From the NCBI GenBank assembly GCA_030431455.1, contig JAUIJE010000002.1, forward strand, positions 129,294 to 193,293: a DNA stretch of 64,000 bases. The letters run 5' to 3'. The stretch is from a bacterium. Its GTDB lineage: Bacteria; Myxococcota; UBA727; JAUIJE01. Position numbers and translations under genes: made by a program. The notes below the pieces were generated by a model, which was not told the origin of the DNA, did not search any database, and saw nothing but the letters and a program-made list of their open reading frames with translations. Below are positions 11,595 through 34,696 of the stretch, in pieces (the stretch's first letter is position 1; each line of letters begins with the position of its first letter).

Positions 11595-11612
11595 GCGACG
11601 TCCGTCGTGGGG

Positions 11613-11984: not shown

Positions 11985-12077
11985 CAGCCCAAGTTACCAA
12001 GATGAAGAACCGGACCGAAGTTTTGGGCTCGATCTTGATCAAACCGACGCAAGCGGTCGGCGCGGTCCCGCAGGGGG

Positions 12078-13685
12078 TCAGCGCAGCTGCAGCCCGAGGA
12101 GTTCCTGCAGCGACATGTACAAGTCGTGCCCCATGTCCGGCCCGATGCTGTTGATCTCGCCGTACTGGCCGTTCTCTTTGTAGGCGAAGGGCGGGGCCTC
12201 GTCGAACTGCGCCTTGGGGATGATGTAGCCGAGGGCATCATTGGCATTGTTGATCGCCACCACCGTCTCGTCGTCGCCGAACAGGCTGAGCAGCGCGGGG
12301 TCGATGGGCGCGTCGGGAAAGTCCCCGCCCGCGGGGCGCTCGACCAGGGAGCCCTCCGGGCCCTCCAGCCACAGCTCGGGGTAGAGCTCGCCGGGGATGG
12401 TCACGATGGTGACGTCCCCGAAGCGCAGGATGTTGAGCTCGGTGTTGATCAGCATGCCCCCGTCGCGGATGTCCTCGATGGGCAGCTCGCGCAGCCGCTC
12501 CCCCTCGACGAAAGTGCCGTCGGGCAAAAACCCGTCGCGTTCGACCAGGCCGACCTTGAGGGCCAAAACCAAGCGAAGGTTGTCCACCTGGGTGAAGTAG
12601 GACATCCGGGTGAACGACAGGGTGGGGGTCACCGACCGGCCGTCGCTGAGCGCGGCCCCGGCCAGTCCCGCGACGTTGGTGCCGATGTAGTCCGCGAGTT
12701 CGAACGTGCCCGAGGGGCAGGTCTCGTCGCCGTTTTCGTCGGGGCAGCCGGCGATGTGCAGAGGGTTCATCAGGCCGCCGAGGTTGCCCGCGGAGAACAC
12801 CGCCACCGACCCGGGGTACTGGTCCTCGAGCCCGGTGCGCAGATAATGTGGATAGTCAGAGGTGATGATGTGGTTGTCGCCCCCCAATGCTTCTGGGTGG
12901 TTGCCCCAGAAGGTCCAGGTCGCGACCGTGCCCCCGTCGTCGGCATCGAAGCGCAGGGTGGTGATGGTGGGGTCTTTGACCTCGGGGAGGCGGGAGTCGT
13001 CGATGAGGTCGGGGGCGGTGCTTTGGCCCACCGTGACCGTCACCGGCACCATGTTGTCGAGGCTGGCCTCGAGCCCGGCCACCGCCCGGGTGATGATGTG
13101 CTCGAGATAGGCGGGGTCGCGCCCGGTGGTGCCCGGGTCGGGCCCGGAGATGCCCATGGTGTCCTCGGCCTCGTGGTTGTGCGTGGCCGCGACGATGACG
13201 TGGTCGAACCCGAGGGGCTCGGCCGCGGCCCGCAACGCGTTCACGTCGGCCTGGAACACCCCGAGGGTGTCGAAGCTGACCATGCCCACCAGCATGTCCC
13301 CCTGGGCGAACACCAAGGTCCGCGCCCACAGGTCGTCGTGCACCCCGTTGGCGGCCCGGCCCATGTCGAAGCCGGCCATCCAGGCCGCGTCCCATTGGCC
13401 GTCGCCGTCCGCGTCGTCGAAGGGCTCGTCCGGGTCCTTGACCCCGTCTCCGTCGAGGTCGTCCCAGGTCTCGAAGGTCGGCGTGATCGTCTCCGCCGCC
13501 GCCCCCACCATCAACGGACCGTCCCCGCTTTCGCAGCCCTGGGCCCCCGGACACACCGCGGGGGTGGGCCGCCCGTGGTTGTCCACCATCGGCACCGTGC
13601 GCATCGCGGGCACGGTGGTGATCTGTACGTCGCCGTCACAGGCAAAGAGACCGGCGCACCCCAACAAGGCCAGCAGCTTTTTCAT
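12078..13685 (-). CDS. Secreted lipoprotein, possibly a neutral/alkaline ceramidase-family hydrolase.
   Basis: ATG at 13685 opens MKKLLALLGCAGLFAC (lipobox). ATHNHEAEDTMGISGP resembles the His-rich zinc site (xTHxHSGP) of bacterial neutral ceramidases. The family call is tentative. Confidence 0.45.
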   Translation of the reverse strand: MKKLLALLGCAGLFACDGDVQITTVPAMRTVPMVDNHGRPTPAVCPGAQGCESGDGPLMVGAAAETITPTFETWDDLDGDGVKDPDEPFDDADGDGQWDAAWMAGFDMGRAANGVHDDLWARTLVFAQGDMLVGMVSFDTLGVFQADVNALRAAAEPLGFDHVIVAATHNHEAEDTMGISGPDPGTTGRDPAYLEHIITRAVAGLEASLDNMVPVTVTVGQSTAPDLIDDSRLPEVKDPTITTLRFDADDGGTVATWTFWGNHPEALGGDNHIITSDYPHYLRTGLEDQYPGSVAVFSAGNLGGLMNPLHIAGCPDENGDETCPSGTFELADYIGTNVAGLAGAALSDGRSVTPTLSFTRMSYFTQVDNLRLVLALKVGLVERDGFLPDGTFVEGERLRELPIEDIRDGGMLINTELNILRFGDVTIVTIPGELYPELWLEGPEGSLVERPAGGDFPDAPIDPALLSLFGDDETVVAINNANDALGYIIPKAQFDEAPPFAYKENGQYGEINSIGPDMGHDLYMSLQELLGLQLR

Positions 13686-13738
13686 GCGCGTCCGATACGC
13701 CACTGCAGCGGGCCCGCCAACACCGTTGGCGCCCTTGG

Positions 13739-15286
13739 TCAACCGCCAAAGATCTCAGGGTCGTAGCCGCCGCTGCAGTGACAGGCCCCGCTCGCCTCCA
13801 CCCACACATCGCTCAAAAGCTCGGTGCCCAACGCCTCGGCGCAGCAGGTGCGGCAGTCTTCTTCCGGGTCCAGCTTCCCCTGAATCGCCGCGGGGTCGAT
13901 GTCGCCGTCCGGGCACTTCACCTCCACGCCCAAACAGTGACATTTGTCTTCCTCGAACACCGACCCCTCGAGACAACACACCTCGCAGTCGGCCACCCCC
14001 GCCGCGTCTTGGTAACAGTGCGCGGCGTTGTCGAGGATCTCCTTGGCGCTGGGGGCATCCGACCCCCCGCACATCTCCCCGCACATCGACAAAAAGAAAA
14101 AACCCACAAACGCCACGATCGACAACAACGCCTTGATCGGGGTGTTGCTGCGGCTGGACTTTTCGAAATAGTCCATGTCGATGCCGAGGGCACAGGCCAC
14201 CAACACCGCGCGCTGGTCGACGTCAAAGCGGTCGGGGTCGGCGAACTCGATGCTGAAGTTGTCCGCGTCGGTGAAGGCCTCTTGCAGCAGGCCCGCGTGC
14301 TGTTTGGTGATGGCCCCGACCTCGGTCGTGGTGCCGGGCTGGACCAAGGGAAACTTCCAGACCCGGAAAAACCCCGCCTTCACCTGGGCGAACAGTTGGC
14401 CTTTGCCGTCGACGAGGTCGTACTGCCGCGACAGCAGCGCGAACTTTTTGCGCACCGCCCCCATCGGCCGCCCGGTGGCGCTTTCGTGCACCGTGGTCTG
14501 GGGCATCCAGAACGTGAACTTCCGCTCCGCCCGCGCCTGCGGCTGGCCTTGCGGGTCCTGCAGCGAGATCGACAGCGGCCGCCGGGCCCCGAGCACCTGC
14601 CGCAGGGCCACCCCGAGCACGCCCCCGCCCTCCTCGAGGGCGTGGCCGATGCCCGCCACCCCGGCGTCGATCTCGTAGTCGTTCTTTTGTTCGATCCCGA
14701 GCAGCTCGCCGGCCTTGCGGCGCTGGCGCAGCTCGATGCGGCCCGCTTGTCCCAAAAAGCCCATCGCCCCGCCCGCGCCCGCGGGTGCGAGCGGGGTCCC
14801 GTCGTCAAACGGGTCCGCCGCCCCCCCGTGCACCTCGACGTGGGCCCCGGGACGGTCGGGGGCCGGGCCCGCGGCCCCGGCGGGGCGGGCCACCGGGGTG
14901 GGCGCGTCGAGCTCGAGCCCGGAGCCGCCGCCGGTGACGAGCATCGGCGACAGCTCGGGCACCAACCGCTCGAGGTCGCCGGCGGCAAAACACGTCAGGC
15001 CGTCGGTGAGGCACGCATGGGTCTGCACCCCCTTGAGCAAGAAGCGTCGCATGCGCTGCTGGCACACCGGGCAGGACAAGGCGCTGGGCTGGCTTTGGTC
15101 GCGGGCGAGTGCACCCAATGTAGCTGCATCGATCCCGATGTGGGCGGTGACCTGCTTGGTCGCGTCCGCGGGGCAGACGTGGCTGCCGCAGCTCTGGCAT
15201 CCCCACGCCCCGACGGGGGCGCGGTTTTGCTCCCACTGGGTGCCCTGGCAGGTTGGACACAACGGACCGCTCACGATTCCCCCCAA
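13739..15286 (-). CDS. Zinc-ribbon / scramblase-like (tubby-fold) / transmembrane / Cys-rich modular protein.
   Basis: N-terminal CPTCQG...CQSCGSHVC and CPVCQQ...HAC are two zinc ribbons. Middle FTFWMPQTTVHESATGRPMGAVRKKFALLSRQYDLVDGKGQLFAQVKAGFFRVWKFPLV resembles PF03803 scramblase. Then a TM helix LLSIVAFVGFFFLSMCG and about 100 aa with 18 Cys. Confidence 0.5.
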   Translation of the reverse strand: MGGIVSGPLCPTCQGTQWEQNRAPVGAWGCQSCGSHVCPADATKQVTAHIGIDAATLGALARDQSQPSALSCPVCQQRMRRFLLKGVQTHACLTDGLTCFAAGDLERLVPELSPMLVTGGGSGLELDAPTPVARPAGAAGPAPDRPGAHVEVHGGAADPFDDGTPLAPAGAGGAMGFLGQAGRIELRQRRKAGELLGIEQKNDYEIDAGVAGIGHALEEGGGVLGVALRQVLGARRPLSISLQDPQGQPQARAERKFTFWMPQTTVHESATGRPMGAVRKKFALLSRQYDLVDGKGQLFAQVKAGFFRVWKFPLVQPGTTTEVGAITKQHAGLLQEAFTDADNFSIEFADPDRFDVDQRAVLVACALGIDMDYFEKSSRSNTPIKALLSIVAFVGFFFLSMCGEMCGGSDAPSAKEILDNAAHCYQDAAGVADCEVCCLEGSVFEEDKCHCLGVEVKCPDGDIDPAAIQGKLDPEEDCRTCCAEALGTELLSDVWVEASGACHCSGGYDPEIFGG

Positions 15287-15346
15287 CCAGGCGACGATAG
15301 GCCGAGCCCGGGGACGGGAGCAAGACGCGGACGGCCCGCCCGGGGG

Positions 15347-18300
15347 CTATTCCCGCAACACTTCGAGGCTGTAGCGGGTGAGCTCGCCCGTCGCGCTGTG
15401 GGTGGAGCGCACCTCCACGTAAAACCCCTCCCCCGGGTTGAGGTCGGGGGGGAGCACGGTGGTGTCGATGAGGTTGTTCTCGAAGGTCGCGACCACGGTC
15501 CCGGCCAGATCGAGCACCTTGACGGTGAGGTCGTGGACATCGTGCAGGCTGCTCGCCCGCACCCGGATGGTCTCCGCGGGGTCCAAGGCGGTGGCCAGGG
15601 TCACGCGGTACACATCGGGGTCGTCGGTGTTGCTCTGTCCCTGAACAAACAGTGGCAAGCTGGCGTCCTGCGCGCCGGCGATGTCGTCGTTGGGCTCTTG
15701 TTCCGCCGGGCCGAGGTTGCGCGCCACCTCCACCGCGTAGCTGTCGGGGCGGTTGGTCGACGAAAAGCCGTCGGGCACGATGGTGAAAAAGAGCTGATCG
15801 CCCGCCGGCAAGGGGTGCACCGCCTCGGCCGCGTAGTCCTCGACGTAGAAGGTCTCGGTGCCGTCGGGCTCATAGAGCCGGAGCTGGAAATCGCCGCGCT
15901 CGAGCTCGTTGTTGAAGCGCACCGAGAGGTGTTCGTCGGGGCTGGCGGGGGCGAGGAGGTCGACGCGGTAGGTGTCGATGTTGTTGCGGTTGTCCTGCCC
16001 CACCACCCGCACCGGGGCGGCGCCGAGGTGGAGCACGTGGGCGGAGACGAAGTCATCGTTGGGCTCTTGCTCGACGTCGTCTTGCAGGGACACGGACAGC
16101 TCGTAGAGATCGGGGGCCGAGGTGCTGTTGCCCTCGACCCGGAGCCGCACCGTCTCGGTGGCGGCCAGGGGAATGAACAGCACCGCGTCCTCGTGACGGC
16201 TGGTCTTGAGCTCTTGGCCGGCGTCGTCGATCCACGCGAGGTTGAGATCGGAGACGTCGGCGTCGTTGTGCAGCCGCACCCGGAGGTTCTGCCCCGGGGC
16301 GAGGGGGGCGGGGACGTCGAGGGTGAAGACGTCGGGCTCGCCCTTGATGCTCTGGCCCACCACCCGGTAAGGAAAGCTGGTGGTGGGGATGGGGTTGGCC
16401 GCGGCCACCACGTCGTTGGGCTCGAGTTCGGTGGCGTCGGTGACCCGCTCGACGTCGACCACGTACCGGAACTCGAAGTCGTCTTCGTTGCCCTCGAAGT
16501 CGAGGAAGAACGGCCCGGGTCCGTCGTGGGCAAACAGCCGCCAACGGGTCTGGCGCCGGGTGTTCACGCTGTAGAGTTCTTCGTCGAGCAGGTCCTTGAT
16601 GCGCAGCCGGGTGGCGGCGAGGGTGTCCAAGGCCTCGATGCGCACCTCGATGTACTCCCCCGGACCGAGGGCCGGGCTCGGCTCGAGCCGGTACACGTCG
16701 TGGAGGTTGTCGAGCAGGGTGCCGGTGAAGTGGGCGGGCAAGCTCTCGATGAGCTGGGCCGCGGCCACGGTGTCGTTGGGCTCGGCGTCGAACACCGGCG
16801 GCACCGGTCCCGCCTGCACCATGAGGGTCCACTCCCGCACCGGGGGGTTGGGGGGCTCGATCGCCACCGGGGTGATCAAGAAGTACAGCTCGGCGGGGGC
16901 CGCGTCGACGATCGCCCGGAGCCGGCCGGGCTCCTCCTCGGTGGCGTCGCGGATTTCGTGCAGCCGGCCCCGGGGGTCTTTTTGGTAGAGGATAAAATCG
17001 GGCATACCCGACAAGAAGCTGGTCTGGACCTCGAGCAACAGCGGCGCGCCCACGTCGATGCGGGTCCAGCTCGTGTCCGGCACATACCGCCCCGGCGACA
17101 GGTCGTCCCCGGTGGCGGAGAAGGCCACGTCCCCGTCGAGGTCGAAGGTGCCCGCGCCGCTGGCCGAGGTCGTGGTCACGGAAAAGCCCACCCACACATC
17201 GCTCTTGTCGCGGTTGACCGCGAGCCAGCGGTAGGTGCCCGCCTCGGGGGTCACCGCGTAGGCGGTGTCCCGGTCGAGGTCGTCCCAGGTGCCGATCACC
17301 CCGCTCGGCCCCACCAAGGTCGCCTGGGGCTGGTTGAGGTCGAGCAACACCGAGGTCAGGACCTGGCCCGCGGGGGCGTCAAACGCGAACACCTGGCCGC
17401 TCAGGCCCTCGATCTCCACCCGGGGCGCGGCCAAGGTCTCGTCGAGCCCCACCGCGCCCACCTCCTGGACCGTCATCCGGCTCACATCGACATCAAACGA
17501 AATGTCGAAGCCAAGCGAGGTCTGCCAATCCACCACCACCAAGAGCGCGCCCGCGGCCGAGGCCCACGCCCCTTGCACCAGGGCGTAGACATCATCGTCC
17601 TCCTCGAGCACGACCTCCTCGAGGAACGCCCCCTCGGGGGAGAACAGCAACAGCGCCGGCACGGTGGCGACGTCCTCCGCCTCAAAGCTGAGCAGCAGCC
17701 CCGCGGGTTCGGTGGACGACAGGGCAAAGAAGTTGTCGTCGAGGCCGAGCAGCTGCCCGGAGGCGCTCACCGTCTCCCCCGCCCCCCCGGGCAACAGTTC
17801 CTGCGGGGTGGGGGGCATGACCTCCTCGACGACGCCGATGTACGCAAAGTCCGGGTCGCCGATGAGCGGGGCCGCGTCGGGGTCGGCGATGACCGCCACC
17901 GGGGCGATGGTGAGCACATAGGGCCCGTCGTAGGGGAGCACCACCTCCCGCTCGGGTTCGCTCACCACCCCGAGGCGCGAGGTCCGCACGTAGCCTTCGG
18001 GCCCCTCGAGGCGGAACGCGGGCTGGGGCAGCCCCGCGTCGAAGATCTTGATGCGCAGGTACTGCCCCGCCACCCCGTCGAACGTCCACTGGTCGATGTC
18101 CTGCTCGACCACGTCGTCCCCGTCGAGGTCCACCGGCCGGCCGATGACCCCGGTGAAGATCAGGCTGTCGCCCACCGGCTCGAGCACCAATGTCTCTGGA
18201 CTCCCCCCGTAGGCGGGGTCGTTCATGTCCGGCACGCTCTCGGTGGCGTCCGCGTCCCCGGCGAGGATGTCGTCCTCGGACAGACAAAGGCCCGCGCTCG

Positions 18301-18823
18301 CGAACAGGCCCGGTCCGCACACCACGTCCGGCGTGCACAGGTGGGTGAGCGGGTGGTAGGTGGTGCCGGTGCCGCAGTTGTCGACGGGGACGCATTCCCC
18401 GCTGGCGTCGTCGAAGGTGGTGCCCTCACCGCACTGGGTGGTGTCGAGGCAGTCGCCGGTCACGGGGTCGGGGGTGGTGCCGTCGCCGCAGGTGAACAGC
18501 GGGAGGCACTGCCCGGTGGACGGGTCGAGTTCGGTGCCTTCACCACAGGTGGCTTCGGGCACACACTCCCGTGCACTGGCATTGTAGACGGTGCCCGGGC
18601 CACAGGTGGCCAGGGGTCGACACTCCCCGGTGGCTTCGTCGAGGGAGGTGCCCGGTCCGCACACCACCGGGACCAGGGTCGAGACGCACGCCCCGTCCTC
18701 GGCCCGGGTGTCCTCGCCGCAGAGCACCCCGTCCCCCGATGGGCACGCGCCGAACAGGGCTGCGGCGGGGAGCAGCGCGGCCAGGGACAAGAGGCGGGCG
18801 GTCATGGTCTTTTGGTCGGTCAT
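15347..18823 (-). CDS. Very large secreted protein with N-terminal Myxococcus-type Cys-rich repeats (CGxGT...C) followed by multiple pre-peptidase C-terminal (PPC)-like domains.
   Basis: ATG at 18823 is preceded by GAGGAG and opens a signal peptide MTDQKTMTARLLSLAALLPAAALFGAC. Repeats of about 13 aa of the form ...CGPGT.....C..... occur. Several EPNDxxxxA modules (EPNDTVAAAQ, EPNDVVAAAN, EPNDDFVSAH, EPNDDIAGAQ) mark PPC domains. Confidence 0.7.
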   Translation of the reverse strand: MTDQKTMTARLLSLAALLPAAALFGACPSGDGVLCGEDTRAEDGACVSTLVPVVCGPGTSLDEATGECRPLATCGPGTVYNASARECVPEATCGEGTELDPSTGQCLPLFTCGDGTTPDPVTGDCLDTTQCGEGTTFDDASGECVPVDNCGTGTTYHPLTHLCTPDVVCGPGLFASAGLCLSEDDILAGDADATESVPDMNDPAYGGSPETLVLEPVGDSLIFTGVIGRPVDLDGDDVVEQDIDQWTFDGVAGQYLRIKIFDAGLPQPAFRLEGPEGYVRTSRLGVVSEPEREVVLPYDGPYVLTIAPVAVIADPDAAPLIGDPDFAYIGVVEEVMPPTPQELLPGGAGETVSASGQLLGLDDNFFALSSTEPAGLLLSFEAEDVATVPALLLFSPEGAFLEEVVLEEDDDVYALVQGAWASAAGALLVVVDWQTSLGFDISFDVDVSRMTVQEVGAVGLDETLAAPRVEIEGLSGQVFAFDAPAGQVLTSVLLDLNQPQATLVGPSGVIGTWDDLDRDTAYAVTPEAGTYRWLAVNRDKSDVWVGFSVTTTSASGAGTFDLDGDVAFSATGDDLSPGRYVPDTSWTRIDVGAPLLLEVQTSFLSGMPDFILYQKDPRGRLHEIRDATEEEPGRLRAIVDAAPAELYFLITPVAIEPPNPPVREWTLMVQAGPVPPVFDAEPNDTVAAAQLIESLPAHFTGTLLDNLHDVYRLEPSPALGPGEYIEVRIEALDTLAATRLRIKDLLDEELYSVNTRRQTRWRLFAHDGPGPFFLDFEGNEDDFEFRYVVDVERVTDATELEPNDVVAAANPIPTTSFPYRVVGQSIKGEPDVFTLDVPAPLAPGQNLRVRLHNDADVSDLNLAWIDDAGQELKTSRHEDAVLFIPLAATETVRLRVEGNSTSAPDLYELSVSLQDDVEQEPNDDFVSAHVLHLGAAPVRVVGQDNRNNIDTYRVDLLAPASPDEHLSVRFNNELERGDFQLRLYEPDGTETFYVEDYAAEAVHPLPAGDQLFFTIVPDGFSSTNRPDSYAVEVARNLGPAEQEPNDDIAGAQDASLPLFVQGQSNTDDPDVYRVTLATALDPAETIRVRASSLHDVHDLTVKVLDLAGTVVATFENNLIDTTVLPPDLNPGEGFYVEVRSTHSATGELTRYSLEVLRE

Positions 18824-18833
18824 GGCGCGCTCC

Positions 18834-21800
18834 TCAATCCAACACGTTGACGTCGAGGATGTACTCATCGGACGCGTCGCTCTCGGCCCCGTCCTGCGAA
18901 ATCTCGACGTAGTAGGTGCCCGCCCCGGGGGGCGTGATGTTGACCCACACCCGGAAGCCCTGCCCGGTGTAGAGCTCGGCGAAGCTCTCATCGCGCAGGG
19001 TCACGCGGATGTTGCTCCCGTCCGAGAGGTTCTCCATGCGCAGCCGGTAGTCTTCGGTCCCGTCGACCACGACCTCGTAGACGTCGGCGTCGCCGGGGCG
19101 GACCATGCCGTAGATCGCGCCCGGCACCACAAAGCCATTGGACGAGGCCGCGTCTTGATTAGGCTCGCGTTCGCACCGGCCGCCGGCTTGGAGCTTGAGC
19201 CGGTAGCGGTCCTGGCCGCTCCCCGCCCCGGTGACCACCACCGAGAACGGCCCGGTGCTGCCCACCGGGAGCGCGTCGACGAGAAAACTCGTCGCGCTCT
19301 CGTCCACCGCGAGCAGGTTGGCGGTGTCGGGGTCGGGACCGTCGTAGAGCCGCACGAGGTTCTGGGAGTTGTCGTCCACGTTGATCACGCTCAGGCGCAA
19401 GGAGCTGTCCTCGGACAAGGGCGCGGCCAGCGCGAAGGTCCACACGTCGTCGTCAGCGTCGGTGGCGTAACCGTACACCTCGTGGCCCAGGTCGAGGTCG
19501 ACCTCGCCCAGGTCTTCGGCGAAGCCGGTGCCGTTGGGTTCGGACTCGGTCCCCGGGCCGGTGTCGACGTCGACCTGGTACACGAATTCGCCCCCCGATG
19601 AGCCGCTCACGATCACGGTGTAGACCCCCGCGGGCAGGTCGGGCACGTGCACCACGTTGAGCTCGGCCTCGTGGTAGCCGACCACGGTGCCGTCCGCGCT
19701 CTGTACGGTGACGTCGAGGTCGTTGGCGTTTTCAAAGTTGCGCGCGGTCACCCACAAAGACTCGTCGGGGCCCAGCGAGGCGGGCAGGTCGAAGGTAAAG
19801 ACATCGTCACCGCCGCCCTCCTCGCGGTAGCCGATCACCGACGCGGGCAACGGGCCCATGTGGTCGGCGTCCGAGAGGTCGTTGTTGGGTTCGACCTCGA
19901 CCGGCACGTCGGCCACGTCGAGGGTGATGACGTAGGGGCTCTCGGTGGTGATGAACTGCCCGTACACCTCGATGTGGTACAGCCCCGGCCCGTGGTAGCT
20001 CGCCACGTAGGTGCTGGTGTTGACCCCCAGCGTGCCCGGGGCGCTGTCGGGGTCGGGGATCGACGACAGGGGCAGGAAGTTCTGGTCGAGGACGCGGACC
20101 GCGACCCCGTCGGTGATGAAGCCAAAGCCGTTGTCGCTCTCCATGTTGTCGAAGTGCACCCGCAGCGATTGGTGGGGCTCGAGCTGGTCGAGCAGCTCGA
20201 AGGAGTAGACGTCGATCTCGTCGTCGTCGATGAAGCCGCGGAACTGGGCGAGCTCGCCCCCGAGGGGGACCGCGTTTTGTTTGACGTCGTTGGGCTCGAT
20301 GTCCCGGAAGATCGGCAGCTCGTGCACGGTGGCGGTGAGCGACCAGTCGAGCAAGGCGTGGTCGTCGGCGTCGAGCTCGATGAGCAAGGGGCGGGGGTCG
20401 CGGTTGACGATGTACAGCGGCCGGTCGAGCTGGGGCCGGTGCACGCGCCGGAGCTGCACCCCGTCGATGGAATACACCGCGATGTCCGGGTCGCCGGCGA
20501 GGATGTCGAGGTCAAAGCCCAGCATCGAGGACACCGGGGCCTCGACCACCAAGAACGCACGCTCGAACCCGTCAAAGCCATAGACCAGGTCATCGCCCGC
20601 GACCGTCCCGGTGGGGTTGGCGGCGAGGTCGAGGGCCCCGAGGTCGTAGGGGGTCTGCAGGGTCATCACGATGCCCACCCCGGTGTCGTCCGCGGGGCTG
20701 TCGTTGAACACGAAGAACACATACTCACCGTTGTCGGCGAGGAAGAAGAACTCGTCGTCGTCGAGGACCAGGGCCCGGCTGCCCCCCGGCCCCACCACCT
20801 GCACGTCGGGGTTGAACAGCCCGGTGCCGTGGATGTCCACGCTCACCACCTGCCGCGCCGCGGTGGTGATGCGGTAGGCGCCGGCGGTGAAGCCGGACAC
20901 GTCGAGGGTGTCGGTGGACGAGCTGGCGTCGGGCTGCACCGCCCCGCGGTTGACCAAGGGCACGATGTGCATGTTCACGGTGATGTCGTCGACCGGCCCG
21001 GTGGAGGTGCGCCAATCGAGCACCACCGTGGCCTCCCCGAGCCCCTTGACGTACACCCCCACAAAGTCGTCCTCCTCGATGACCTGGCGCTCGGACACCA
21101 GCTGCCATTGGCTGTTGAACACCAACACCGACGGCAGCGTCTCCGCGGACACGTTCTCGAAGGTCAACAGCACCGCCGCCCCGGTGAAGGTCTCGATGCC
21201 AAAGAAGTTGTCGCTGAGGTTCTTGAGGTTGAAATCGATGCTTGTGGGATTGAGGAAGTCAGCCCCGGGGTTGTGGTTGGGCACCCCGGGGGTGGCGATC
21301 TCGGTGATGCGGATGACGTAGCCCGCCTCGGGGTCGCCCAGGGGCACCCCCGAGGTCAAAAACGCGCTCGGGACCACGGTGAGCTCGTAGCGGCCGTCCC
21401 GGGGCAAGATCACCTCCCGCTTGGCCTCGGCCTCGTAGCCCACCGATGAGCTGCGCAGGTATTCGCCCGGCCCCTCGAGGGTGAACACCGGCGCGGGCAA
21501 CCCCAAGGACAGCACCTCGATGCGGTAGTAGCCGCCGCTTTGCCCCTCGAACGCCCACACGTCCCGGTCCTGGGTCAACGTGCCGTTGCCGGCCACGTCG
21601 GCGGGCCGGCCGATGACCCCGGTGAGCACCGTCTCGCCGTCGTCCGCGAGGGTGACCATCTCGGGCGTGCCCCCGTACAAGGGGTCGTTGTGGTCGGGGG
21701 TCGACTCGACAAAGTCCGCCCCGAGGGCGAGGCCTTGGTTGGGCCCCACGCACTGCCCGTCGAACAGCACCTGGCCCGGGCCGCAGGCCAAGGTGGACTC

Positions 21801-22259
21801 GCACAGCCCGCTGTCCGGGTTGAGGGTGGCCCCGGGGGCGCAGGGAAAGTCCGCTTCGCAGTCGTCGGTGAGCGGGTTGAAGGTCGTGCCCGCGCCGCAG
21901 GTGCGCACCGGCAAACACACGTGGGTGTCGGGGTCGGCGTAGGTGCCGGGGCCACACACCACGTCGGGGGTGCAGGTGTTGGTGGCGAGGTCGAGGAACG
22001 TGCCCGGGCCACACTCGGCCTCGGGCTCGCACACCCCGCCCATGAGCACGGTGCCCTCCCCGCAGGCGGTGAGGGGCTCGCACTCGAATGTCTCTGGATT
22101 GAGCAAGGTGCCTTCGCCGCACCGGGTGTCGGTGGCGTCGGCCACGCACACCCCGTTTTGCAACGTGGTGCCCGCCCCGCAGGTGTCGACCTGCGGGCCA
22201 CACGCGCTCACCGCCACGAACACGACGCTCCACCGAAGAGCGTGGGTTGCCATCCGCAT
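18834..22259 (-). CDS. Very large secreted protein and paralogue of the downstream gene, with Cys-rich repeats plus PPC-like domains.
   Basis: 1141 aa with signal MRMATHALRWSVVFVAVSACGP, CG.GT repeats, and EPNNDLSDADHMGP / EPNGTGFAEDLG / EPNQDAASSNGF modules. The stop lies 11 nt before the next start. Confidence 0.7.
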   Translation of the reverse strand: MRMATHALRWSVVFVAVSACGPQVDTCGAGTTLQNGVCVADATDTRCGEGTLLNPETFECEPLTACGEGTVLMGGVCEPEAECGPGTFLDLATNTCTPDVVCGPGTYADPDTHVCLPVRTCGAGTTFNPLTDDCEADFPCAPGATLNPDSGLCESTLACGPGQVLFDGQCVGPNQGLALGADFVESTPDHNDPLYGGTPEMVTLADDGETVLTGVIGRPADVAGNGTLTQDRDVWAFEGQSGGYYRIEVLSLGLPAPVFTLEGPGEYLRSSSVGYEAEAKREVILPRDGRYELTVVPSAFLTSGVPLGDPEAGYVIRITEIATPGVPNHNPGADFLNPTSIDFNLKNLSDNFFGIETFTGAAVLLTFENVSAETLPSVLVFNSQWQLVSERQVIEEDDFVGVYVKGLGEATVVLDWRTSTGPVDDITVNMHIVPLVNRGAVQPDASSSTDTLDVSGFTAGAYRITTAARQVVSVDIHGTGLFNPDVQVVGPGGSRALVLDDDEFFFLADNGEYVFFVFNDSPADDTGVGIVMTLQTPYDLGALDLAANPTGTVAGDDLVYGFDGFERAFLVVEAPVSSMLGFDLDILAGDPDIAVYSIDGVQLRRVHRPQLDRPLYIVNRDPRPLLIELDADDHALLDWSLTATVHELPIFRDIEPNDVKQNAVPLGGELAQFRGFIDDDEIDVYSFELLDQLEPHQSLRVHFDNMESDNGFGFITDGVAVRVLDQNFLPLSSIPDPDSAPGTLGVNTSTYVASYHGPGLYHIEVYGQFITTESPYVITLDVADVPVEVEPNNDLSDADHMGPLPASVIGYREEGGGDDVFTFDLPASLGPDESLWVTARNFENANDLDVTVQSADGTVVGYHEAELNVVHVPDLPAGVYTVIVSGSSGGEFVYQVDVDTGPGTESEPNGTGFAEDLGEVDLDLGHEVYGYATDADDDVWTFALAAPLSEDSSLRLSVINVDDNSQNLVRLYDGPDPDTANLLAVDESATSFLVDALPVGSTGPFSVVVTGAGSGQDRYRLKLQAGGRCEREPNQDAASSNGFVVPGAIYGMVRPGDADVYEVVVDGTEDYRLRMENLSDGSNIRVTLRDESFAELYTGQGFRVWVNITPPGAGTYYVEISQDGAESDASDEYILDVNVLD

Positions 22260-22273
22260 CGCTTCGCCTCCGC

Positions 22274-25200
22274 TCAGTTGGTGATGGTCACGATGAGCTC
22301 GTAGGGGGCTTCATCCGCGAGGGACGCGCCCTGCACCCGGATGAAGTAGTCCCCGGCGGAGCCGGCCACGTGTTGCACCACTTCGTTGTCGTTGGTGCTG
22401 GTCCCGCTTTGCACCACCGACCCCCCCGGGTCGAGGATGTCCACGTCGAGGTTGCCCACCGCGTGGCTGAACAGCACGTCCGCGCGCAACGTCTCGCCCG
22501 CCCCCACGCTCACCGTGAACAGGTCGGGGTCGCCGCCGCACAGCTGCAACTCTGGATAGCTGCCAGGCGCCACCGGGTAGGCCCCCGCGGGGGTGTCGTT
22601 GGGCTCGGTCAAGTCGTCCAGGCACAGGCCCACGCACTCGTCGTCGGGGGTGTCCGAACAGTTCTGCGAGATGCCGTCGCCGCACACCTCCCGGGCGCCG
22701 GGGCGCACGGTGGAGTCGGTGTCGTCGCAGTCACCGTCGCAGGAGGTGACCTTGTCCCCGTCGAGGTCGAGGCAGCCGCCTTCGGCCCGGACCTCGAGCT
22801 CGTAGGTGCTGGTCGGTCCCGCGCTCTCGCCGGTGGCGAAGGCCGCGACCCGGACCGCGTACACCCCGGGGTTGTCGAAGGTGTACAGAATGTAGCTGTC
22901 GGTGGTGGACAGGCCCGTCTGGGGGTCGATGTTGTTGTTGTTGGTCACCAGCTGCACCCCGCTTTCGTTGTACAGGGTGAGCAGCGAGTCGAGGGGGGAG
23001 CCGTCGTCGCGCGCGTCGATGTCGAACGCGAGCTGGGTCCCGGGCACGGTGACCTCGACGCAGTACCAGTCGTGGTCGGCCGCGGCCTGGATCACCCCGC
23101 CGCGCTCGCCCGGCCACGCCACCAGCTCGCACGCGGCCTGGGGCTGGTTGACCTCGGTCTCGGCCACCGCCGGGCAGCCGTCGTCGACGTAGCCGTTGCA
23201 GTTGTTGTCCTTGCCGTCGCCGCACACCTCGGGGGCCCCGGCGTAGACGGTGCCGTCGGCGTCGTTGCAGTCCCCTTGGGCCGGGGTCTGCAGGTCGCTG
23301 TCCCCGTCGTCGTCGCACATGTCGTCGACGATGTCGTTGCAGTCGTTGTCCACCCGGTCGCAGGCTTCGAGGGGCAGAGGCCCGCACAGGCCGCAGGCGT
23401 TGGACACCCCGTCGTCGACCTCGCCGTTGCAGTCGTTGTCCGCCCCGTCACAGATCTCGGGGCCGGTGGGCCCACACTCGCCGCAGGCGTTGAGCGCCCC
23501 GTCGTCGACCAGGCCGTTGCAGTTGTTGTCGAGACCGTCACAGATTTCTTCCGGCTCGGGGGCGCAGGCCCCGCAGCTGTTCTTGACGTACTCGTCGACA
23601 AAGCCGTCGCAGTTGTTGTCCACCCCGTCACACACCTCGGGGGCCCCCGGGTAGACGTCGTCGCGGCTGTCGTCGCAGTCCCCGTCGTTGGGGGTCACGC
23701 CGTCGGTGTCGAGGTCGGTGTCGCAGTCGGTGTCCACCACGTCGTCACAGTCGTTGTCGATGTTGTCGCCGCACAGCTCCACCGGGGGGTAGCCGCAACC
23801 GCCGCAGCTGTTCTTGACCCCTTCGTCCACATCACCGTCGCAGTCATTGTCGAACCCGTCGCAGATCTCGTTGGCCGCGGGGTTGCGGGTGGGGTCGTTG
23901 TCGTCGCAGTCCCCGTCGAGGCCGCCGTATCCGTCCCCGTCGAAGTCCCCGATGCAGGTCCCGGGGTCGCTCACCCCGTCGCAGTTGTTGTCTTTGTTGT
24001 CGCAGGTCTCGGCCCGGCCGAAGTGCACCTCGGGGTCGTCGTCTTCACAGTCGCCTTCGCAGGTGCTGACCCCGTCGAGGTCGTTGTCCTCGCACACCGG
24101 GTAAAAGAGCGCCTTGGCCTTGAGCACGTAGGTGAGCCGAGAGCCGCCGGCGAGGGTGGACTCGTCGCTGACCTCGATGGCGTAGATGCCGGGCCGGGCA
24201 AAGGTGAACGACAGGTAGCTGTCCGAGTCCTCTTCAAAGTAGCTGGTCTCGGGATCGATGCCGTCGTTGTTGGTGGTGATCACGTCCCCCGGGGTCTCGA
24301 GCAGCTTGAGCCGGGAGTTGAGCAGCGAGTCGTAGGGCGGCTCCTGGGCGTCGATGTCAAACTCGATTTCGGCATTTCCAGGAACGAAGAAACAATAGAC
24401 GTCCTTGTCCTTTTTGGGGTCGATGACCCCGTCCACGGTGAACGGCAGGGTCAAGAGCGGACAGTTGCTCATGTCGTCGTTGGGCTCGGCCTCGGACTTG
24501 ATGAGCTCGGGACACTCCTCGTCCACTTCCCCGTCGCAGTTGTTGTCGTAGCCGTCGCAGGTCTCGGTCTGGCCGGGGAACACCTGGTTGTCGGCGTCGT
24601 TGCAGTCCCCGTCACAGGGGGTGAGACCGTCGCCGTCCCCGTCTTCACAGATGAGCAGCTCCAGGGCGCGGATGTGCAGCTCGTAGGTGTACTCGGGCCC
24701 GCCGTCGTCGGCGTAGAAGTGATAGGTGTCGAGCCGCACGGTGGTGGGCTCGTCGAAGCTGTAGCTCAAGAACGGGTCCGACCCGTCGCTGTAGTCGTTG
24801 TACCCGCCGGGCAGCGCTTCACCGTCCGAGCCGAACAGGCTGAGCACCCCGTCGGTGGGGGCGCCCAAGATCGCCGAGTCGATGTCGAACTCGAGCACCG
24901 TGCCCGCGGGGGCGTGAAAGCAGTAGCTGTCGATGTCCCCCGCGGGGGTGTAGGCCCCCACGACCACGATTTCGTCGTCCAGGGTCGGGGGCAGGACTAT
25001 GTCTTGGCAGTTGGCTTGGCCGCCGTTGGGCTCGACCTCGGCGACCTGGCCCCCCACGCAGCCTTCGTCGACGGCGCCGTCACAGTCGTTGTCGAGCAGG
25101 TCGCAGATCTCCACCGGCACCGGGCCGCACTCGCCGCACTGGTTGCGCACCCCTTCGTCCACCTGCCCGTCGCAGTTGTCGTCGATGTCGTTGCAGGCTT

Positions 25201-25498
25201 CGGGCTCACCGGGGTTGCGGTCGGGGTCGTTGTCGTCGCAGTCCACCGCCGCGTCGTACCCGTCGTTGTCGAGGTCGTTGTCGATGATGGTGCAGTTGCC
25301 GAGCTCACAACGGTAGCCGAAGGGGCAATCGAGGTCGCCCTCGCAGGCGAACTCATCGACGTCCTCGCCCACCTGAAAGGTGTTGCCCCCCGCGTCGGGG
25401 GTCACGCCGGAGCCCGTGCTCCCGGGACAGCCCGAGAGCACCGAGAGCGACAAAACGAACAGAGAAAAGACGAGGGGGGAAGAAGTGTTCAAACGCAT
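22274..25498 (-). CDS. Giant lipoprotein with tandem 'putative metal-binding' (MopE-like DxDxDG...CDDxD...C.DG.DNDCDG..DE) repeats and PPC-like domains.
   Basis: Lipobox MRLNTSSPLVFSLFVLSLSVLSGC. There are at least 9 copies of the Asp/Cys-rich approximately 35 aa motif, and EPNGGQANCQ / EPNDDMSNCP / EPNDTPAGAY modules. The start at 25498 shares TGATG with the upstream stop; the alternative ATG at 25513 adds MLGAV. Confidence 0.7.
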   Translation of the reverse strand: MRLNTSSPLVFSLFVLSLSVLSGCPGSTGSGVTPDAGGNTFQVGEDVDEFACEGDLDCPFGYRCELGNCTIIDNDLDNDGYDAAVDCDDNDPDRNPGEPEACNDIDDNCDGQVDEGVRNQCGECGPVPVEICDLLDNDCDGAVDEGCVGGQVAEVEPNGGQANCQDIVLPPTLDDEIVVVGAYTPAGDIDSYCFHAPAGTVLEFDIDSAILGAPTDGVLSLFGSDGEALPGGYNDYSDGSDPFLSYSFDEPTTVRLDTYHFYADDGGPEYTYELHIRALELLICEDGDGDGLTPCDGDCNDADNQVFPGQTETCDGYDNNCDGEVDEECPELIKSEAEPNDDMSNCPLLTLPFTVDGVIDPKKDKDVYCFFVPGNAEIEFDIDAQEPPYDSLLNSRLKLLETPGDVITTNNDGIDPETSYFEEDSDSYLSFTFARPGIYAIEVSDESTLAGGSRLTYVLKAKALFYPVCEDNDLDGVSTCEGDCEDDDPEVHFGRAETCDNKDNNCDGVSDPGTCIGDFDGDGYGGLDGDCDDNDPTRNPAANEICDGFDNDCDGDVDEGVKNSCGGCGYPPVELCGDNIDNDCDDVVDTDCDTDLDTDGVTPNDGDCDDSRDDVYPGAPEVCDGVDNNCDGFVDEYVKNSCGACAPEPEEICDGLDNNCNGLVDDGALNACGECGPTGPEICDGADNDCNGEVDDGVSNACGLCGPLPLEACDRVDNDCNDIVDDMCDDDGDSDLQTPAQGDCNDADGTVYAGAPEVCGDGKDNNCNGYVDDGCPAVAETEVNQPQAACELVAWPGERGGVIQAAADHDWYCVEVTVPGTQLAFDIDARDDGSPLDSLLTLYNESGVQLVTNNNNIDPQTGLSTTDSYILYTFDNPGVYAVRVAAFATGESAGPTSTYELEVRAEGGCLDLDGDKVTSCDGDCDDTDSTVRPGAREVCGDGISQNCSDTPDDECVGLCLDDLTEPNDTPAGAYPVAPGSYPELQLCGGDPDLFTVSVGAGETLRADVLFSHAVGNLDVDILDPGGSVVQSGTSTNDNEVVQHVAGSAGDYFIRVQGASLADEAPYELIVTITN

Positions 25499-28110
25499 CA
25501 CGGCACCAAGCATTCGGCGGTGTAAGAAATCTCGACGGTGGCCCCCGCGTCGGGCACGGACGTTCCGTTGAAGGAGATGGAGTTGTTCTCCTCGTTGTAT
25601 TCCCAGCCGTTGAGCTCGTCGGCGGGGATGGGCACCCCGTTGACCAGCACCACGATGGTGGCCTCGTCGGGGATGCGGGTGAGGGTGAAGCGGGTCAGGG
25701 CGCTGAACGTGCCGATGCCGATCTCCTCCATCGTCGTCGACCAGTCCGGGGTGCAGATGGATTCGAACAACCCTTCGAGAGCCAACGAAATGTCGTAGTA
25801 ACGGTCCCCGCTGCTCGCGCTGTTGCCGTTGGCGTCGCAGCCCGCGGGGGGCTCGCCCGCGATGGCCGAGGCGATCACCGCTTGGCTGTCGTAGCCCTTG
25901 GCCGAGAGCAGCCCGTCGACGTAGTCGCTGACGTCGCCCTCGGAGAAGTCATCCTCGTCGGAGACGTAGATCACCGAGAGCAGGGCGTCGGGGCGGAGAA
26001 AGCCGCCGTTGGCGGTGGAGACCAGCGGTTCGGTCACCGCCAACACCGAGGCCGCGAGGCCCTTTTCGGTGGCGCTCCCGTCGGTGCCGACGTTGACCAT
26101 GGCCACGAAGTCGCCGATGGGATCGGCGCTGGCGTCGGGCCCGATGTTGGCGATGTAGGGGGCGACGAGTTTGCCCGCGTCGGCGTCGCTCACGTCGGTG
26201 GTGACCACCCCGATGTGGTAGTCGATGTTGAGCCCGACGGTGAAGTTGATGAACGAGCTGAAGTTCTGGGCGATGGACTGTTGCTCCTGCAGCATCGATC
26301 CGGAGTTGTCGATGACGAAGAGGATGTCCACCGCCGGGGTCTGCGACTGGGTGAAGACATCGACCACGTCGGCCGCGGACAGCGCCGCGGTGGTGCCGAA
26401 CACCGCGTGACGCTCCACCGGCTCTTTGGCCCCGGTGGAGAAGACCTCGAGGTGACCGCTGTGCTGGCCGGGGCCGGGGCCCGACAACATGCGCAGCGCG
26501 AGGGGGCGCGCTTCGCCCGAGGCCAAAAAGTCGCCGGGGGAAATCGGGGTCAGGAGCTCGAAGTTGGGGTCGGTGGCGGCGGAGAACGCGGTGCTGTCGA
26601 GACGCGCGGCCACCGGGCCCACGTTGGTGAGGGTGGCTTCGAAGGTGCGCGACACGCAGCCCTCGGTGACCGTGCCGAAGTACTGCACCCCCGGGGTGAG
26701 CACCAGGTCGGCGAAGTCGCCGAAGCCGAGCAGGTCGTGTTTTTGGGTGGTGCCGTCGTCGAAGGTGACGATCAGGTCCCCGGTGGAGGGGGCGGCGGCG
26801 ATGGGGGTGTAGGAGACGGTGGCGGTGGTGGTCTCGCCCGGCAACAATGTGCCTGCAGGCGCGCCGGTGATAAGGGAAAACTCAGGGGCGGCGTCGGGCG
26901 ACAGCGCGGTGCTGGCGATGTGGCAGTCGACCATGGAGGCGTTTTCGATGGTGACGGTGACCTCTTCGGTCAAGCCCACCCCGCGGGGGGGGAAGCTCAC
27001 CGGGCTCGGGTCAAACAACAGGCCGCAGGTCGGGGTCGGGTCGGCGAACGCGACGAGGTCGACCTCGACGTCGGGCTCCTCGGCGGAGGCGAGGCTCAAG
27101 GTGCCGAGCCGGTCGCCGGCGGCGGTGGGGGCGAAGGCCACGGTGATCGCGGTGCGCGCCCCCGGGGCGAGGGTGCCGGTCGAAGGCGCGGCGGTGATGC
27201 TGTAGTCGGTGTCGAGCGCGGTGATGGTGGCGCCGGTGAAGGTGCAGTCGATTTCGCCGTTGTTGACCACCTCCGCGTCGGCGGTGGTGGTCGAGAAGTC
27301 CACGCTGCCCCGCGGGAAGGACAGGGGGGCGGGGTCGAGGGCCAGGCGGCACCGTTCGGACGGGAGGGCTTCGCCGCCGAGGACCGCGGTGAACTCGAGC
27401 ACCCCCGCGGTCACCACCGAGAACATGCCCGCCCGGGTGCCGGGGCTTTGCGGGGCGAACGTGACCTCGACGCCCACGGTCTGGCCCGCGGCCACTTCGG
27501 TGAGGCTGTCGTCGGTGATCACAAAATCGGCGTGGCCCGCGGTGAGCCGAACCGCGTCGATGGCGCACGGCCCGTTGCCCTGGTTGGTGAGGTTGATGGT
27601 GCGCGGCGCTGAGGCATAGCCGACCTCGGTGTCGTCAAAGTCGACCGGGTCGGGGGCCACGAGCAAATCGCAGGTGGTCGGCGGCGTGCCGTTGCCGGTC
27701 AAGGGTGCGGTCTCGAGCGTCTGGTCGCTGTCGGGCACGTAAAAATCCATGTTCACCGCGTAGGCGTGGGCGTCGGTGGGCCGAAACCGCACCGGCAACA
27801 AAAACCGCCCGCCCGCCGCGAGCGGGGTCTCGACCTCGGTGGCCAGCGCCGCGAACGCCTCGGCGTCGGCCTCGGCCGCCCCCTCTTGCGCGGTGAAGAC
27901 CACGTCCAGCCCGTCGATGGGGGTGCTGCCGCAGTTGATGACCTGGACCGTGCGGATGGTGGTGCTGCGCACGGTGGTGTCGCCGAAGTCGGTCTCCGCC
28001 GGCTCGACGCAGAGGTCGTAGGTGGTGTTGAGCAGGTCTTCGTCCGGGCAGCCAGCGGTCAACAGCAGCGCGGCGGCGGCGAAGAGGGGACGGGGAGGAG
28101 TCCAGGCCAT
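25498..28110 (-). CDS. Lipoprotein with repeated Ig-like (ASH / choice-of-anchor-D-like) domains and a von Willebrand factor A domain.
   Basis: MAWTPPRPLFAAAALLLTAGCPDE is a lipobox. Several approximately 100 aa repeats each carry xxDFG/V..N.G. The MIDAS-type vWA motif DILFVIDNSGSM is present. It is the first gene of a 4-gene minus-strand operon. Confidence 0.65.
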   Translation of the reverse strand: MAWTPPRPLFAAAALLLTAGCPDEDLLNTTYDLCVEPAETDFGDTTVRSTTIRTVQVINCGSTPIDGLDVVFTAQEGAAEADAEAFAALATEVETPLAAGGRFLLPVRFRPTDAHAYAVNMDFYVPDSDQTLETAPLTGNGTPPTTCDLLVAPDPVDFDDTEVGYASAPRTINLTNQGNGPCAIDAVRLTAGHADFVITDDSLTEVAAGQTVGVEVTFAPQSPGTRAGMFSVVTAGVLEFTAVLGGEALPSERCRLALDPAPLSFPRGSVDFSTTTADAEVVNNGEIDCTFTGATITALDTDYSITAAPSTGTLAPGARTAITVAFAPTAAGDRLGTLSLASAEEPDVEVDLVAFADPTPTCGLLFDPSPVSFPPRGVGLTEEVTVTIENASMVDCHIASTALSPDAAPEFSLITGAPAGTLLPGETTTATVSYTPIAAAPSTGDLIVTFDDGTTQKHDLLGFGDFADLVLTPGVQYFGTVTEGCVSRTFEATLTNVGPVAARLDSTAFSAATDPNFELLTPISPGDFLASGEARPLALRMLSGPGPGQHSGHLEVFSTGAKEPVERHAVFGTTAALSAADVVDVFTQSQTPAVDILFVIDNSGSMLQEQQSIAQNFSSFINFTVGLNIDYHIGVVTTDVSDADAGKLVAPYIANIGPDASADPIGDFVAMVNVGTDGSATEKGLAASVLAVTEPLVSTANGGFLRPDALLSVIYVSDEDDFSEGDVSDYVDGLLSAKGYDSQAVIASAIAGEPPAGCDANGNSASSGDRYYDISLALEGLFESICTPDWSTTMEEIGIGTFSALTRFTLTRIPDEATIVVLVNGVPIPADELNGWEYNEENNSISFNGTSVPDAGATVEISYTAECLVP

Positions 28111-28442
28111 GATGTGAGGTCCTTCAGCAGCAGATGCCTACAGGTCGGGCGATGTAGGATTTCGTACTCTGCTTTTCGGGCATGGCTCAAGGAAAGGGAG
28201 CTGAACTCTCCTGAAACAAATCAAACACCGTGTCATGGCCTGATTCGTCAATAGTTATAGATACTTACGAGAGCCTTTGCGCGGCTCAGATCCAGGTGCC
28301 CAGGGGGCGCCGACCGCCCAGACGCTGGCCGAGAGCGAAAGGCTTCTCGGCCGGATCGCGGGGTTGGCCCGTCGGGCGCGGGCTGCCCCGGACCCGGACA
28401 ACCCCGATGCGGGACTCGAATTGCCGGTACAGTGAGCGGACC

Positions 28443-31198: not shown

Positions 31199-31258
31199 CC
31201 CGCGCCGAACCACGGGGCCGGTCTTGTCACGTCCGCTGTGGCATGCTGCGTTCGCGCC

Positions 31259-34608: not shown

Positions 34609-34696
34609 GCGCGTATGGTGAAGCTTCCAAACGGCTTTGTCGACCGCGAAGAGGCTTGACGACCGCCGAAAAGGCCGTCAGAAATGGTGCCGCAGT

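Follow-up and report, generated by a model that had tools for sequence, protein, structure and literature searches.

Organization of the P1–P4 gene block

The window analyzed here is a stretch of 64,000 nucleotides (nt) from a bacterium of the Myxococcota (GTDB lineage UBA727; JAUIJE01), which corresponds to positions 129,294 to 193,293 of contig JAUIJE010000002.1 in assembly GCA_030431455.1, and all coordinates below refer to this window. It contains a block of four consecutive genes on the minus strand, called P1, P2, P3 and P4 in this study, whose large exported products are candidate parts of a calcium-dependent adhesion module. The maximal Open Reading Frames (ORFs) are located at 25498–28110, 22274–25513, 18834–22259 and 15347–18991 and encode 870, 1079, 1141 and 1214 amino acids (aa). 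A previous interpretation made without database searches (the sequence-only reading) had described the same four genes; the ORFs were confirmed, while the lengths of 1079 and 1214 aa had to be corrected to 1074 and 1158 aa, so that the products of P1 to P4 are 870, 1074, 1141 and 1158 aa long.

The 1214-aa version of P4 would run 158 nt into the upstream gene. The ATG at 18823, which is 10 nt past the P3 stop and preceded by GAGGAG, gives 1158 aa, and independent public gene calls have the same start and length. Only with this start are all neighboring genes separated by at most 15 nt or by a stop/start overlap, as was claimed before. For P2, the start is most likely the ATG at 25498 that overlaps the P1 stop, and public gene calls agree. 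The third-position GC content (GC3) of all four frames is 0.87–0.93, the coding signature of a genome with 69% GC, and orthologs of P1, P2, P3 and P4 are each present in other loci, indicating that these are real genes.

The junctions are tight (Table 1), with Shine-Dalgarno-like sequences at the 14-nt and 10-nt ones, and in the loci L003, L004, L016 and L017 the P1/P2 junction is a 4-nt overlap. No terminator-like hairpin was found at any P1–P4 gene junction. A sigma-70 promoter scan of 11400–28400 returned 0 sites, and inspection by eye upstream of P1 found no convincing sigma-54 -24/-12 element. From the tight spacing, the terminator-free junctions and the gene order kept in eight loci, P1–P4 are probably one translationally coupled transcript. 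Pfam and NCBIfam scans detected no catalytic domain in any of the four proteins, in agreement with the previous statement that the operon encodes no protease domain.

Table 1. Features of the P1–P4 block and its products (window coordinates)
Feature	Coordinates	Strand	Basis
P1 gene, 870 aa	25498..28110	-	ORF; NCBIfam choice_anch_D; partial matches to the models of CglD and of the Bdellovibrio MIDAS adhesin
P1 signal peptide with lipobox LLLTAG-C21	28048..28110	-	sequence; lipobox in three P1 orthologs
P1 residues 29–570, five Ig-like (choice-of-anchor D / ASH-type) domains	26401..28026	-	own HMM; Pfam
P1 MIDAS motif D601-N-S603-G-S605-M606	26293..26310	-	conservation in 121 homologs
P1 residues 580–870, integrin-betaI-type vWA inserted in small beta domain (hybrid-like)	25501..26373	-	AF2 and Foldseek
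P1 stop / P2 start overlap, TGATG, 1 nt shared	25496..25500	-	junction sequence
P2 gene, 1074 aa (1079 from upstream ATG at 25513)	22274..25498	-	PF11617; PPC; own HMM
P2–P3 spacer, 14 nt, holds GGAGG	22260..22273	-	junction sequence
P3 gene, 1141 aa, Cys-hairpin stalk and ~8 jelly-roll beta-sandwich domains	18834..22259	-	
P3 residues 27–170, eight ~19-aa repeats C-G-x-G-T-x(7-9)-C	21750..22181	-	16 Cys invariant in 30 homologs
P3 residues 653–1141, four PPC/CBD-like domains opening E-x-E-P-N-(D)	18837..20301	-	own HMM; ColG linker alignment
P3–P4 spacer, 10 nt; GAGGAG overlaps P3 stop	18824..18833	-	junction sequence
P4 gene, 1158 aa, full-length P3 paralog with the same architecture	15347..18823	-	paralogy; gene calls; junction sequence

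P1 carries an integrin-like MIDAS head on an Ig stalk

The N-terminal part of P1 is built of Ig-like domains. The NCBIfam model choice_anch_D matches it in 4 stretches (1e-39), Pfam reports ASH and HYDIN-type Ig matches, and a hidden Markov model (HMM) that we built from the internal repeats locates five domains at residues 29–117, 141–248, 248–356, 356–464 and 468–558, with one Cys pair in domains 1–4.

[quoted passage not shown] The MIDAS motif is complete, its further residues being T638/D639 and S717-D718-E719-x-D721; across 121 homologs of the head, its D, S and M do not vary, and its second S hardly does. P1 orthologs in L003–L005 are 45–50% identical. In the AlphaFold2 (AF2) model of the head (pLDDT 91.4, pTM 0.83), strands and helices alternate, and one N-terminal strand (22–28) together with five C-terminal strands (248–306) makes up a small beta domain that holds the vWA domain as an insertion. 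The best 50 matches of this model in a Foldseek search against PDB are all integrin beta chains (E ~1e-9 to 5e-8; TM-score relative to the query, TMq, 0.38–0.53), and the alignments span about 350 columns, covering betaI and the hybrid domain. By sequence, phmmer with full P1 against PDB sequences found nothing at E<=1, and the profile of the P1 head found only integrin beta-1 at a non-significant E of 0.9; therefore, the link to integrins could only be seen by structure prediction and fold search.

A search with the head module collected at least 695 proteins, mostly Myxococcota lipoproteins of 330–545 aa, and a typical short homolog consists of a lipobox, the MIDAS module and 0–2 Ig domains. 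P1 has the same order, a lipobox followed by a split small beta domain with the inserted MIDAS domain, and adds five Ig domains after the lipobox. All 34 tested family members match NF052240, the model of the Bdellovibrio MIDAS adhesin, and 31 of the 34 match the CglD model. The short homologs sit in varied gene contexts, and no protein with PPC domains or MopE motifs was seen as a conserved partner beside them. For example, in L014 (10001–16910) a short homolog, the 432-aa MIDAS lipoprotein P0244, is encoded upstream of five genes without annotation and of a MotA/ExbB and MotB/OmpA pair, a layout that might connect these adhesins with a proton-driven motor.

P2 is an acidic repeat protein of probable calcium type

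Pfam PF11617 matches P2 with 268 bits (cut-off 27; E 2e-81) in 10 stretches, and P2 orthologs, which are 53–59% identical, contain 9–10 of them. The MopE-type repeats recognized in the sequence-only reading are therefore present in P2, while the metal scavenging derived from them is not supported. The sole PDB sequence match of P2 by phmmer is MopE (2vov; E 9.5e-5) and is limited to MopE residues 6–58, the N-terminal Cys/Asp motif outside the copper site; no homology to the copper-binding core of MopE/CorA was found in P2. PF11617 itself covers only this short Cys/Asp motif and is not specific for MopE/CorA (PMC6189053). The 1079 residues include 174 Asp and 67 Cys compared with 7 His, 4 Met and 2 Trp, at a net charge of about -213. 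From the above, it is a reasonable inference that P2 is a disulfide-knotted protein with metal binding of calcium type, and a PF11617 match should not be annotated as copper binding.

Besides these repeats, P2 also contains beta-sandwich domains of the PPC kind. Pfam PPC is reached by P2 (48.2 bits) and P3 (27.0 bits; cut-off 25.9), and P4 has no Pfam PPC match. Using a profile made from E-P-N-anchored segments of the cassette, we detected four PPC-like domains in P2 at residues 158–275, 341–454, 784–898 and 969–1073, and P4 matches the same profile at 1e-34 to 1e-38. In total, twelve PPC-like domains are distributed over P2–P4, four in each protein, which confirms the earlier observation of multiplied PPC domains without a protease. 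Even where no protease is attached, such domains can act as modules for binding or spacing, and this is a second trap for annotation. Matches of type IX secretion system sorting domains on P2 and P3 were rejected, as they are below cut-off and located on the PPC-like beta-sandwiches.

P3 and P4 form a retained paralog pair of a rare family

P3 and P4 are paralogs along their full length, being 30% identical in an alignment of about 1150 aa (E 5e-124). P3 orthologs from other loci are 37–45% identical to P3 and about 30% to P4, and the reverse is found for P4 orthologs. The two sets of orthologs are thus separate lineages, indicating that the duplication is older than the spread of the cassette and that both copies were retained.

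The N-terminal repeats of P3 are predicted to be disulfide-stapled beta-hairpins, and hairpins are formed there in the AF2 model. The sequence-only reading had assigned Myxococcus Cys-rich repeats to the operon. TIGR02232 gave nothing at E<=10 on the N-terminal regions of P3 and P4 or on P2, and PF13948 (DUF4215) reached 16.8 and 20.8 bits, below its cut-off of 27, so these hairpin repeats are not the named Myxococcus repeat. CBM_14 (35 bits) and TIL (25.6 bits) also matched the P4 N-terminus, and these short, repeated part-profile matches were judged to reflect the Cys pattern and not chitin-binding or inhibitor domains.

From residue 180 to its end, P3 is modeled as about eight beta-sandwich domains (pLDDT 85.3, pTM 0.76). 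For a protein of 1141 residues, this pTM suggests that the eight sandwiches (residues 180–1141; 18837–21722) are packed in a fixed and compact manner and not as a flexible string. The motif E-x-E-P-N-(D) opens the last four domains of P3 and of P4, and a variant form, in one case with V for P, opens the four of P2. P3/P4 homologs keep E-P-N and an Asp downstream of it with little or no variation. Among solved structures, these domains come closest to the collagen-binding domains (CBDs) of the clostridial collagenases ColG and ColH: a profile of the P3/P4 domains matches ColG s3a-s3b (E 8e-11) in an alignment that pairs the EPND linkers, and both the CBD fold and the calcium-linker motif (E-x-E-x-N-D plus downstream Asp) of the ColG/ColH subclass are found. 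The calcium-ligand positions of the ColG s3b linker fit the E-x-E-P-N-D sequence in this alignment. The ColG CBDs are a subclass of PPC domains, whose inter-domain linker changes from helix to strand upon Ca2+ binding, with a gain of affinity (PMC4356367). Foldseek also returned CUB domains for P3, and since no match extends beyond about 220 residues, the overall architecture is without a solved analog.

An exhaustive search with the family-specific middle of P3 (residues 170–650) among 1.84 billion representatives yielded 198 proteins at E<=1e-3, of which 42 reached E<=1e-30, and no vWA partner was seen beside the more distant relatives. As far as our searches show, P3 and P4 would define a new protein family with about 200 relatives, none of which has a functional name. 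One relative with 28% identity, on the 3.8-kb contig L009, is binned as 'uncultured Enterobacteriaceae', which is most likely a binning error.

All four proteins have lipoprotein signals

A lipobox Cys can be read in all four proteins (P1, Table 1; P2, VLSG-C; P3, AVSA-C20; P4, LFGA-C27). It is invariant across the alignment of 30 P3/P4 homologs and present in all 12 orthologs examined from L003–L005, including all three P1 orthologs. Lys at position +2 is absent in P1–P4 and in these 12 orthologs. The first two proteins had been described as lipoproteins before, correctly; for the last two, the lipobox replaces the ordinary signal peptides proposed then. The conserved Cys pairs and the extreme acidity (net charges of P1–P4 from -90 to -213) fit an extracytoplasmic location. 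By analogy with CglB, CglD and Bd0875, the four proteins are presumably anchored in the outer membrane and surface exposed. Together with the domain scans and the gene junctions, the lipoboxes bear out the earlier view of non-enzymatic exported envelope proteins in one tight gene block.

The cassette recurs in uncultured Myxococcota

The order P1-P2-P3-P4 recurs in eight loci of uncultured Myxococcota with unrelated flanks, two of the loci being partial. All four genes are present in the window, in L003 and L004 (contigs from the same metagenome), in L005/L008 (a metagenome-assembled genome, MAG, of an uncultured Myxococcales), in a JGI contig of 142 kb and in L017, while the two truncated loci contain P2-P3-P4 (L007, a 'Deltaproteobacteria' MAG) or P1-P2-P3 (L016, RBG_16_71_12). 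With a narrower P3/P4 alignment as query, 4 loci were found among GTDB species representatives. The protein sizes are similar throughout (P1 857–882, P2 1065–1080, P3 1136–1293 and P4 1118–1219 aa).

Downstream of P4 on the same strand, the window contains a scramblase-family gene (13739–15286), a ceramidase-like lipoprotein gene (12078–13742) and a CheY-like gene (11613–11984). The scramblase-family protein matches PF03803 at E 4e-30 and has a CxxC zinc-ribbon-like N-terminus (weak match) and a Cys-rich tail after a hydrophobic segment; the lipoprotein matches neutral/alkaline ceramidase PF04734 with 30.7 bits, below the cut-off of 32.1. The two genes suggest a local lipid-remodelling pair, and given the gap of 60–84 nt without a terminator, all three genes may be co-transcribed with the cassette in the window. 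The scramblase- and ceramidase-like genes noticed in the sequence-only reading are therefore there, but the link to the cassette that it implied is not supported: wherever the downstream flank of another locus is covered, the scramblase, ceramidase-like and CheY-like genes are all missing next to the cassette, and none of the three belongs to the conserved unit.

Signalling genes lie in the wider surroundings. The CheY-like single-domain regulator (minus strand) converges on a response regulator-HDOD protein (10434–11594, plus strand), and on the other side of the cassette there are an NtrC-type sigma-54 activator (31238–32620, plus strand) and a PAS-histidine kinase-receiver hybrid (32635–34677, minus strand). 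Signalling genes flank the cassette in L003 and L017, too. No link between the cassette and Agl-Glt gliding genes was seen in the loci examined. Three further genes are of separate interest. The gene at 4163–6136 (plus strand) fuses a GH25 lysozyme domain to a Golvesin C-terminal domain, possibly a secreted muramidase. The gene at 50066–51748 (plus strand) encodes a full three-domain GH3-family protein of the acyl-acid amido synthetase type, enzymes best known from plants. The gene at 607–2916 (minus strand) contains PSCyt3/PSD2 domains (DUF1588/DUF1585), which are typical of multi-domain proteins of the Planctomycetes type, and the same domain family occurs near the cassette in L004.

Putative function and alternative explanations

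Considering the above, we favor with moderate confidence the reading that P1–P4 are a self-contained calcium-dependent adhesion module of outer-membrane lipoproteins. The motifs and the acidity point to Ca2+ binding, and the synteny and the retained paralog pair suggest an adhesion function and an association of the four products. Cell-surface adhesion, which had been proposed before, is the best-supported reading, as the P1 head is of the MIDAS lipoprotein adhesin kind, to which the experimentally established adhesins CglD and Bd0875 belong, and the P3/P4 domains are nearest to the binding domains of clostridial collagenases. In this module, P1 would engage the ligand: its five Ig-like domains would form the stalk for the MIDAS head, and the head would bind an acidic ligand residue via its metal ion, in the way of integrin beta, CglD and Bd0875. 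P2 would serve as a disulfide-knotted, Asp-rich spacer with four PPC-like domains, probably loaded with calcium. P3 and P4 would be a conserved, non-redundant pair on eight-hairpin stalks with about eight jelly rolls each, the last four of CBD type. From the ColG calcium-site motif in their linkers, calcium at the inter-domain linkers would stiffen the P3/P4 array, which could then bind a polymer or a fibre multivalently.

Several observations weigh against this interpretation. P1 is below the Pfam cut-offs for VWA_2 (16.1 vs 27 bits) and VWA (13.5 vs 23.8 bits), and its ortholog in L004 passes VWA_2 at 29.3 bits. Against NF052240, P1 scores 50.9–55.6 bits (cut-off 700) and covers only model positions 56–115 of 378; against the CglD model NF033765, it scores 30.6 bits (cut-off 400) with only P1 residues 576–656. 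The P1 head is related to the heads of Bd0875/Bd1483 and CglD and would work in a like manner; with scores below both equivalog cut-offs, P1 is an ortholog of neither. In the P3/P4 domains the first Asp cluster of the ColG calcium site is kept and the second (D-x-x-D) only partly so. PPC and jelly-roll domains serve quite generally for binding or spacing, thus adhesion is assigned at the level of a class. Synteny is the one argument for physical association of P1–P4, a surface-exposed and a periplasm-facing orientation look the same in sequence, and every homolog is annotated as 'hypothetical' or by domain name only, with no functional name.

A more specific form of the adhesion module is a 'split' integrin-like complex, in which four lipoproteins that obligately co-assemble share out parts comparable to those of CglD. 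As a heterodimer, P3 and P4 would give leg-like beta-sandwich supports similar to the alpha legs of integrins, the P1 MIDAS would engage either a ligand from outside or an acidic loop within P2–P4, and calcium and force would switch the assembly between states. We regard this form as unlikely; if true, it would be a previously unrecognized multi-subunit adhesion machine in Myxococcota.

Another explanation, to which we give a low probability, is a structural surface coat or matrix, where four acidic, calcium-binding and beta-rich lipoproteins form a lattice like an S-layer or an extracellular matrix and have no specific ligand outside. One tight block with four products of similar size suggests a fixed stoichiometry, the net charges would suit such a lattice, the pTM of the P3 model speaks for domains packed in fixed positions and not strung like beads, and no whole-protein structural analog exists in PDB. 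However, the fully conserved MIDAS of P1 points to ligand engagement, and its characterized relatives are adhesins (PMC11003981). A family as rare as that of P3/P4 would be unusual for a main envelope layer, though lineage-specific coats do exist, and a self-assembly motif was not identified.

Capture of substrates for feeding seems quite unlikely and overlaps the adhesion module instead of excluding it. Here, the CBD/PPC arrays would tether a protein or polysaccharide polymer (collagen-like fibres or the prey envelope) for enzymes encoded elsewhere. Twelve PPC-like domains over P2–P4 would give high avidity, the nearest solved relatives of the P3/P4 domains bind collagen, and PPC domains normally serve secreted hydrolases (PMC4356367), but in none of the eight loci is a hydrolase encoded in the cassette or consistently adjoining it.

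The periplasm-facing orientation is the default for most lipoproteins of the outer membrane, surface exposure is not proven by anything in the sequences and the cassette encodes no dedicated surface-export partner, so a periplasm-facing complex for tethering or organization within the envelope was also considered. We judge it very unlikely, as P1–P4 comprise about 4,200 residues of disulfide-rich modules of the extracellular calcium type, and the relatives CglB, CglD and Bd0875 are surface-located (bioRxiv 10.1101/2023.10.19.562135; PMC11003981; PMC9946355). Finally, scavenging of copper or another metal in the manner of MopE/CorA, to which the PF11617 ('Cu-binding_MopE') and 2vov matches of P2 would point, is highly improbable and already disfavored by the limited range of the MopE alignment and the few His, Met and Trp residues.

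Comparison with known systems

The adhesion module can be compared with several known systems. MopE/CorA are copper-binding surface proteins of methanotrophs, and P2 contains ten copies of the short N-terminal Cys/Asp motif of MopE, but is without similarity to the copper-binding core and has scarce His, Met and Trp. P3 and P4 are like ColG and ColH in the tandem arrangement of their domains (s3a, s3b and s3 in the collagenases), and E-x-E-P-N-D aligns with the calcium-binding N-terminal linkers of the ColG domains. Unlike ColG/ColH, P3 and P4 contain no M9 peptidase or PKD domain, a Cys-hairpin stalk and four further jelly rolls come before their four CBD-like domains on a lipoprotein, and the second acidic cluster of the calcium site is only partly kept.

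With the integrin beta headpiece, P1 shares a betaI domain inserted in a hybrid domain, which is the predicted fold of the P1 head, and D-L-Y-Y-L-M-D-L-S-Y-S-M of integrin beta-1 corresponds to D-I-L-F-V-I-D-N-S-G-S-M of P1. The distance is large, with an E of 0.9 for the sequence profile, 10–16% identity and a TMq of about 0.4–0.5. P1 has no PSI domain, I-EGF stalk, transmembrane helix or cytoplasmic tail and is lipid-anchored; the beta domain closes the chain at residue 870, and there is no C-terminal hydrophobic segment. Pfam and NCBIfam found no FG-GAP or alpha-subunit beta-propeller in any cassette protein.

In predatory bacteria, the MIDAS/vWA lipoproteins CglB, CglD and Bd0875 are emerging as integrin-like adhesins of gliding and predation, and to our knowledge, all characterized members are single proteins. 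CglD is a surface-exposed, beta-integrin-like adhesin lipoprotein in gliding of Myxococcus xanthus (bioRxiv 10.1101/2023.10.19.562135). Like CglD, P1 is a lipoprotein with a betaI-type vWA/MIDAS head, P1 residues 576–656 align with positions 626–709 of the CglD model around its MIDAS site, and the cassette, too, combines Ca-binding Asp-rich repeats and a Cys-rich stalk in one functional unit. In contrast, P1 reaches 30.6 of the 400 bits required, the full-length TSP3/COMP-like architecture of CglD is not found, and the Ca-binding, Cys-rich and vWA parts that form one chain in CglD have their counterparts over four genes here.

The adhesins Bd0875 and Bd1483 of Bdellovibrio bacteriovorus (NF052240) are also lipoproteins with a MIDAS/vWA domain inserted in a small split beta domain (PMC11003981). 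An adhesive function has been shown for Bd0875, whose MIDAS mutant D66A is defective in prey invasion (PMC11003981), and D-x-S-x-S and a later acidic residue are conserved in P1. P1 differs in its score (51–56 vs 700 bits, with a match of about 60 residues) and in the five Ig-like domains between lipid anchor and head; moreover, the passages of PMC11003981 consulted describe no giant partner lipoproteins for Bd0875, whereas P1 is encoded with three. MIDAS lipoprotein adhesins are already known, and as far as our searches show, the P3/P4 family and a fixed association with three giant CBD-array lipoproteins are undescribed. The cassette is relevant to research on adhesion of myxobacteria and predatory bacteria, with uncultured carriers and a function assigned at class level. 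A MIDAS head is permanently linked to three giant partner lipoproteins here, and divergent uncultured Myxococcota retain the complete set; should the four products form one assembly, the integrin-like repertoire would widen from single adhesins to a multi-subunit, calcium-stiffened device.

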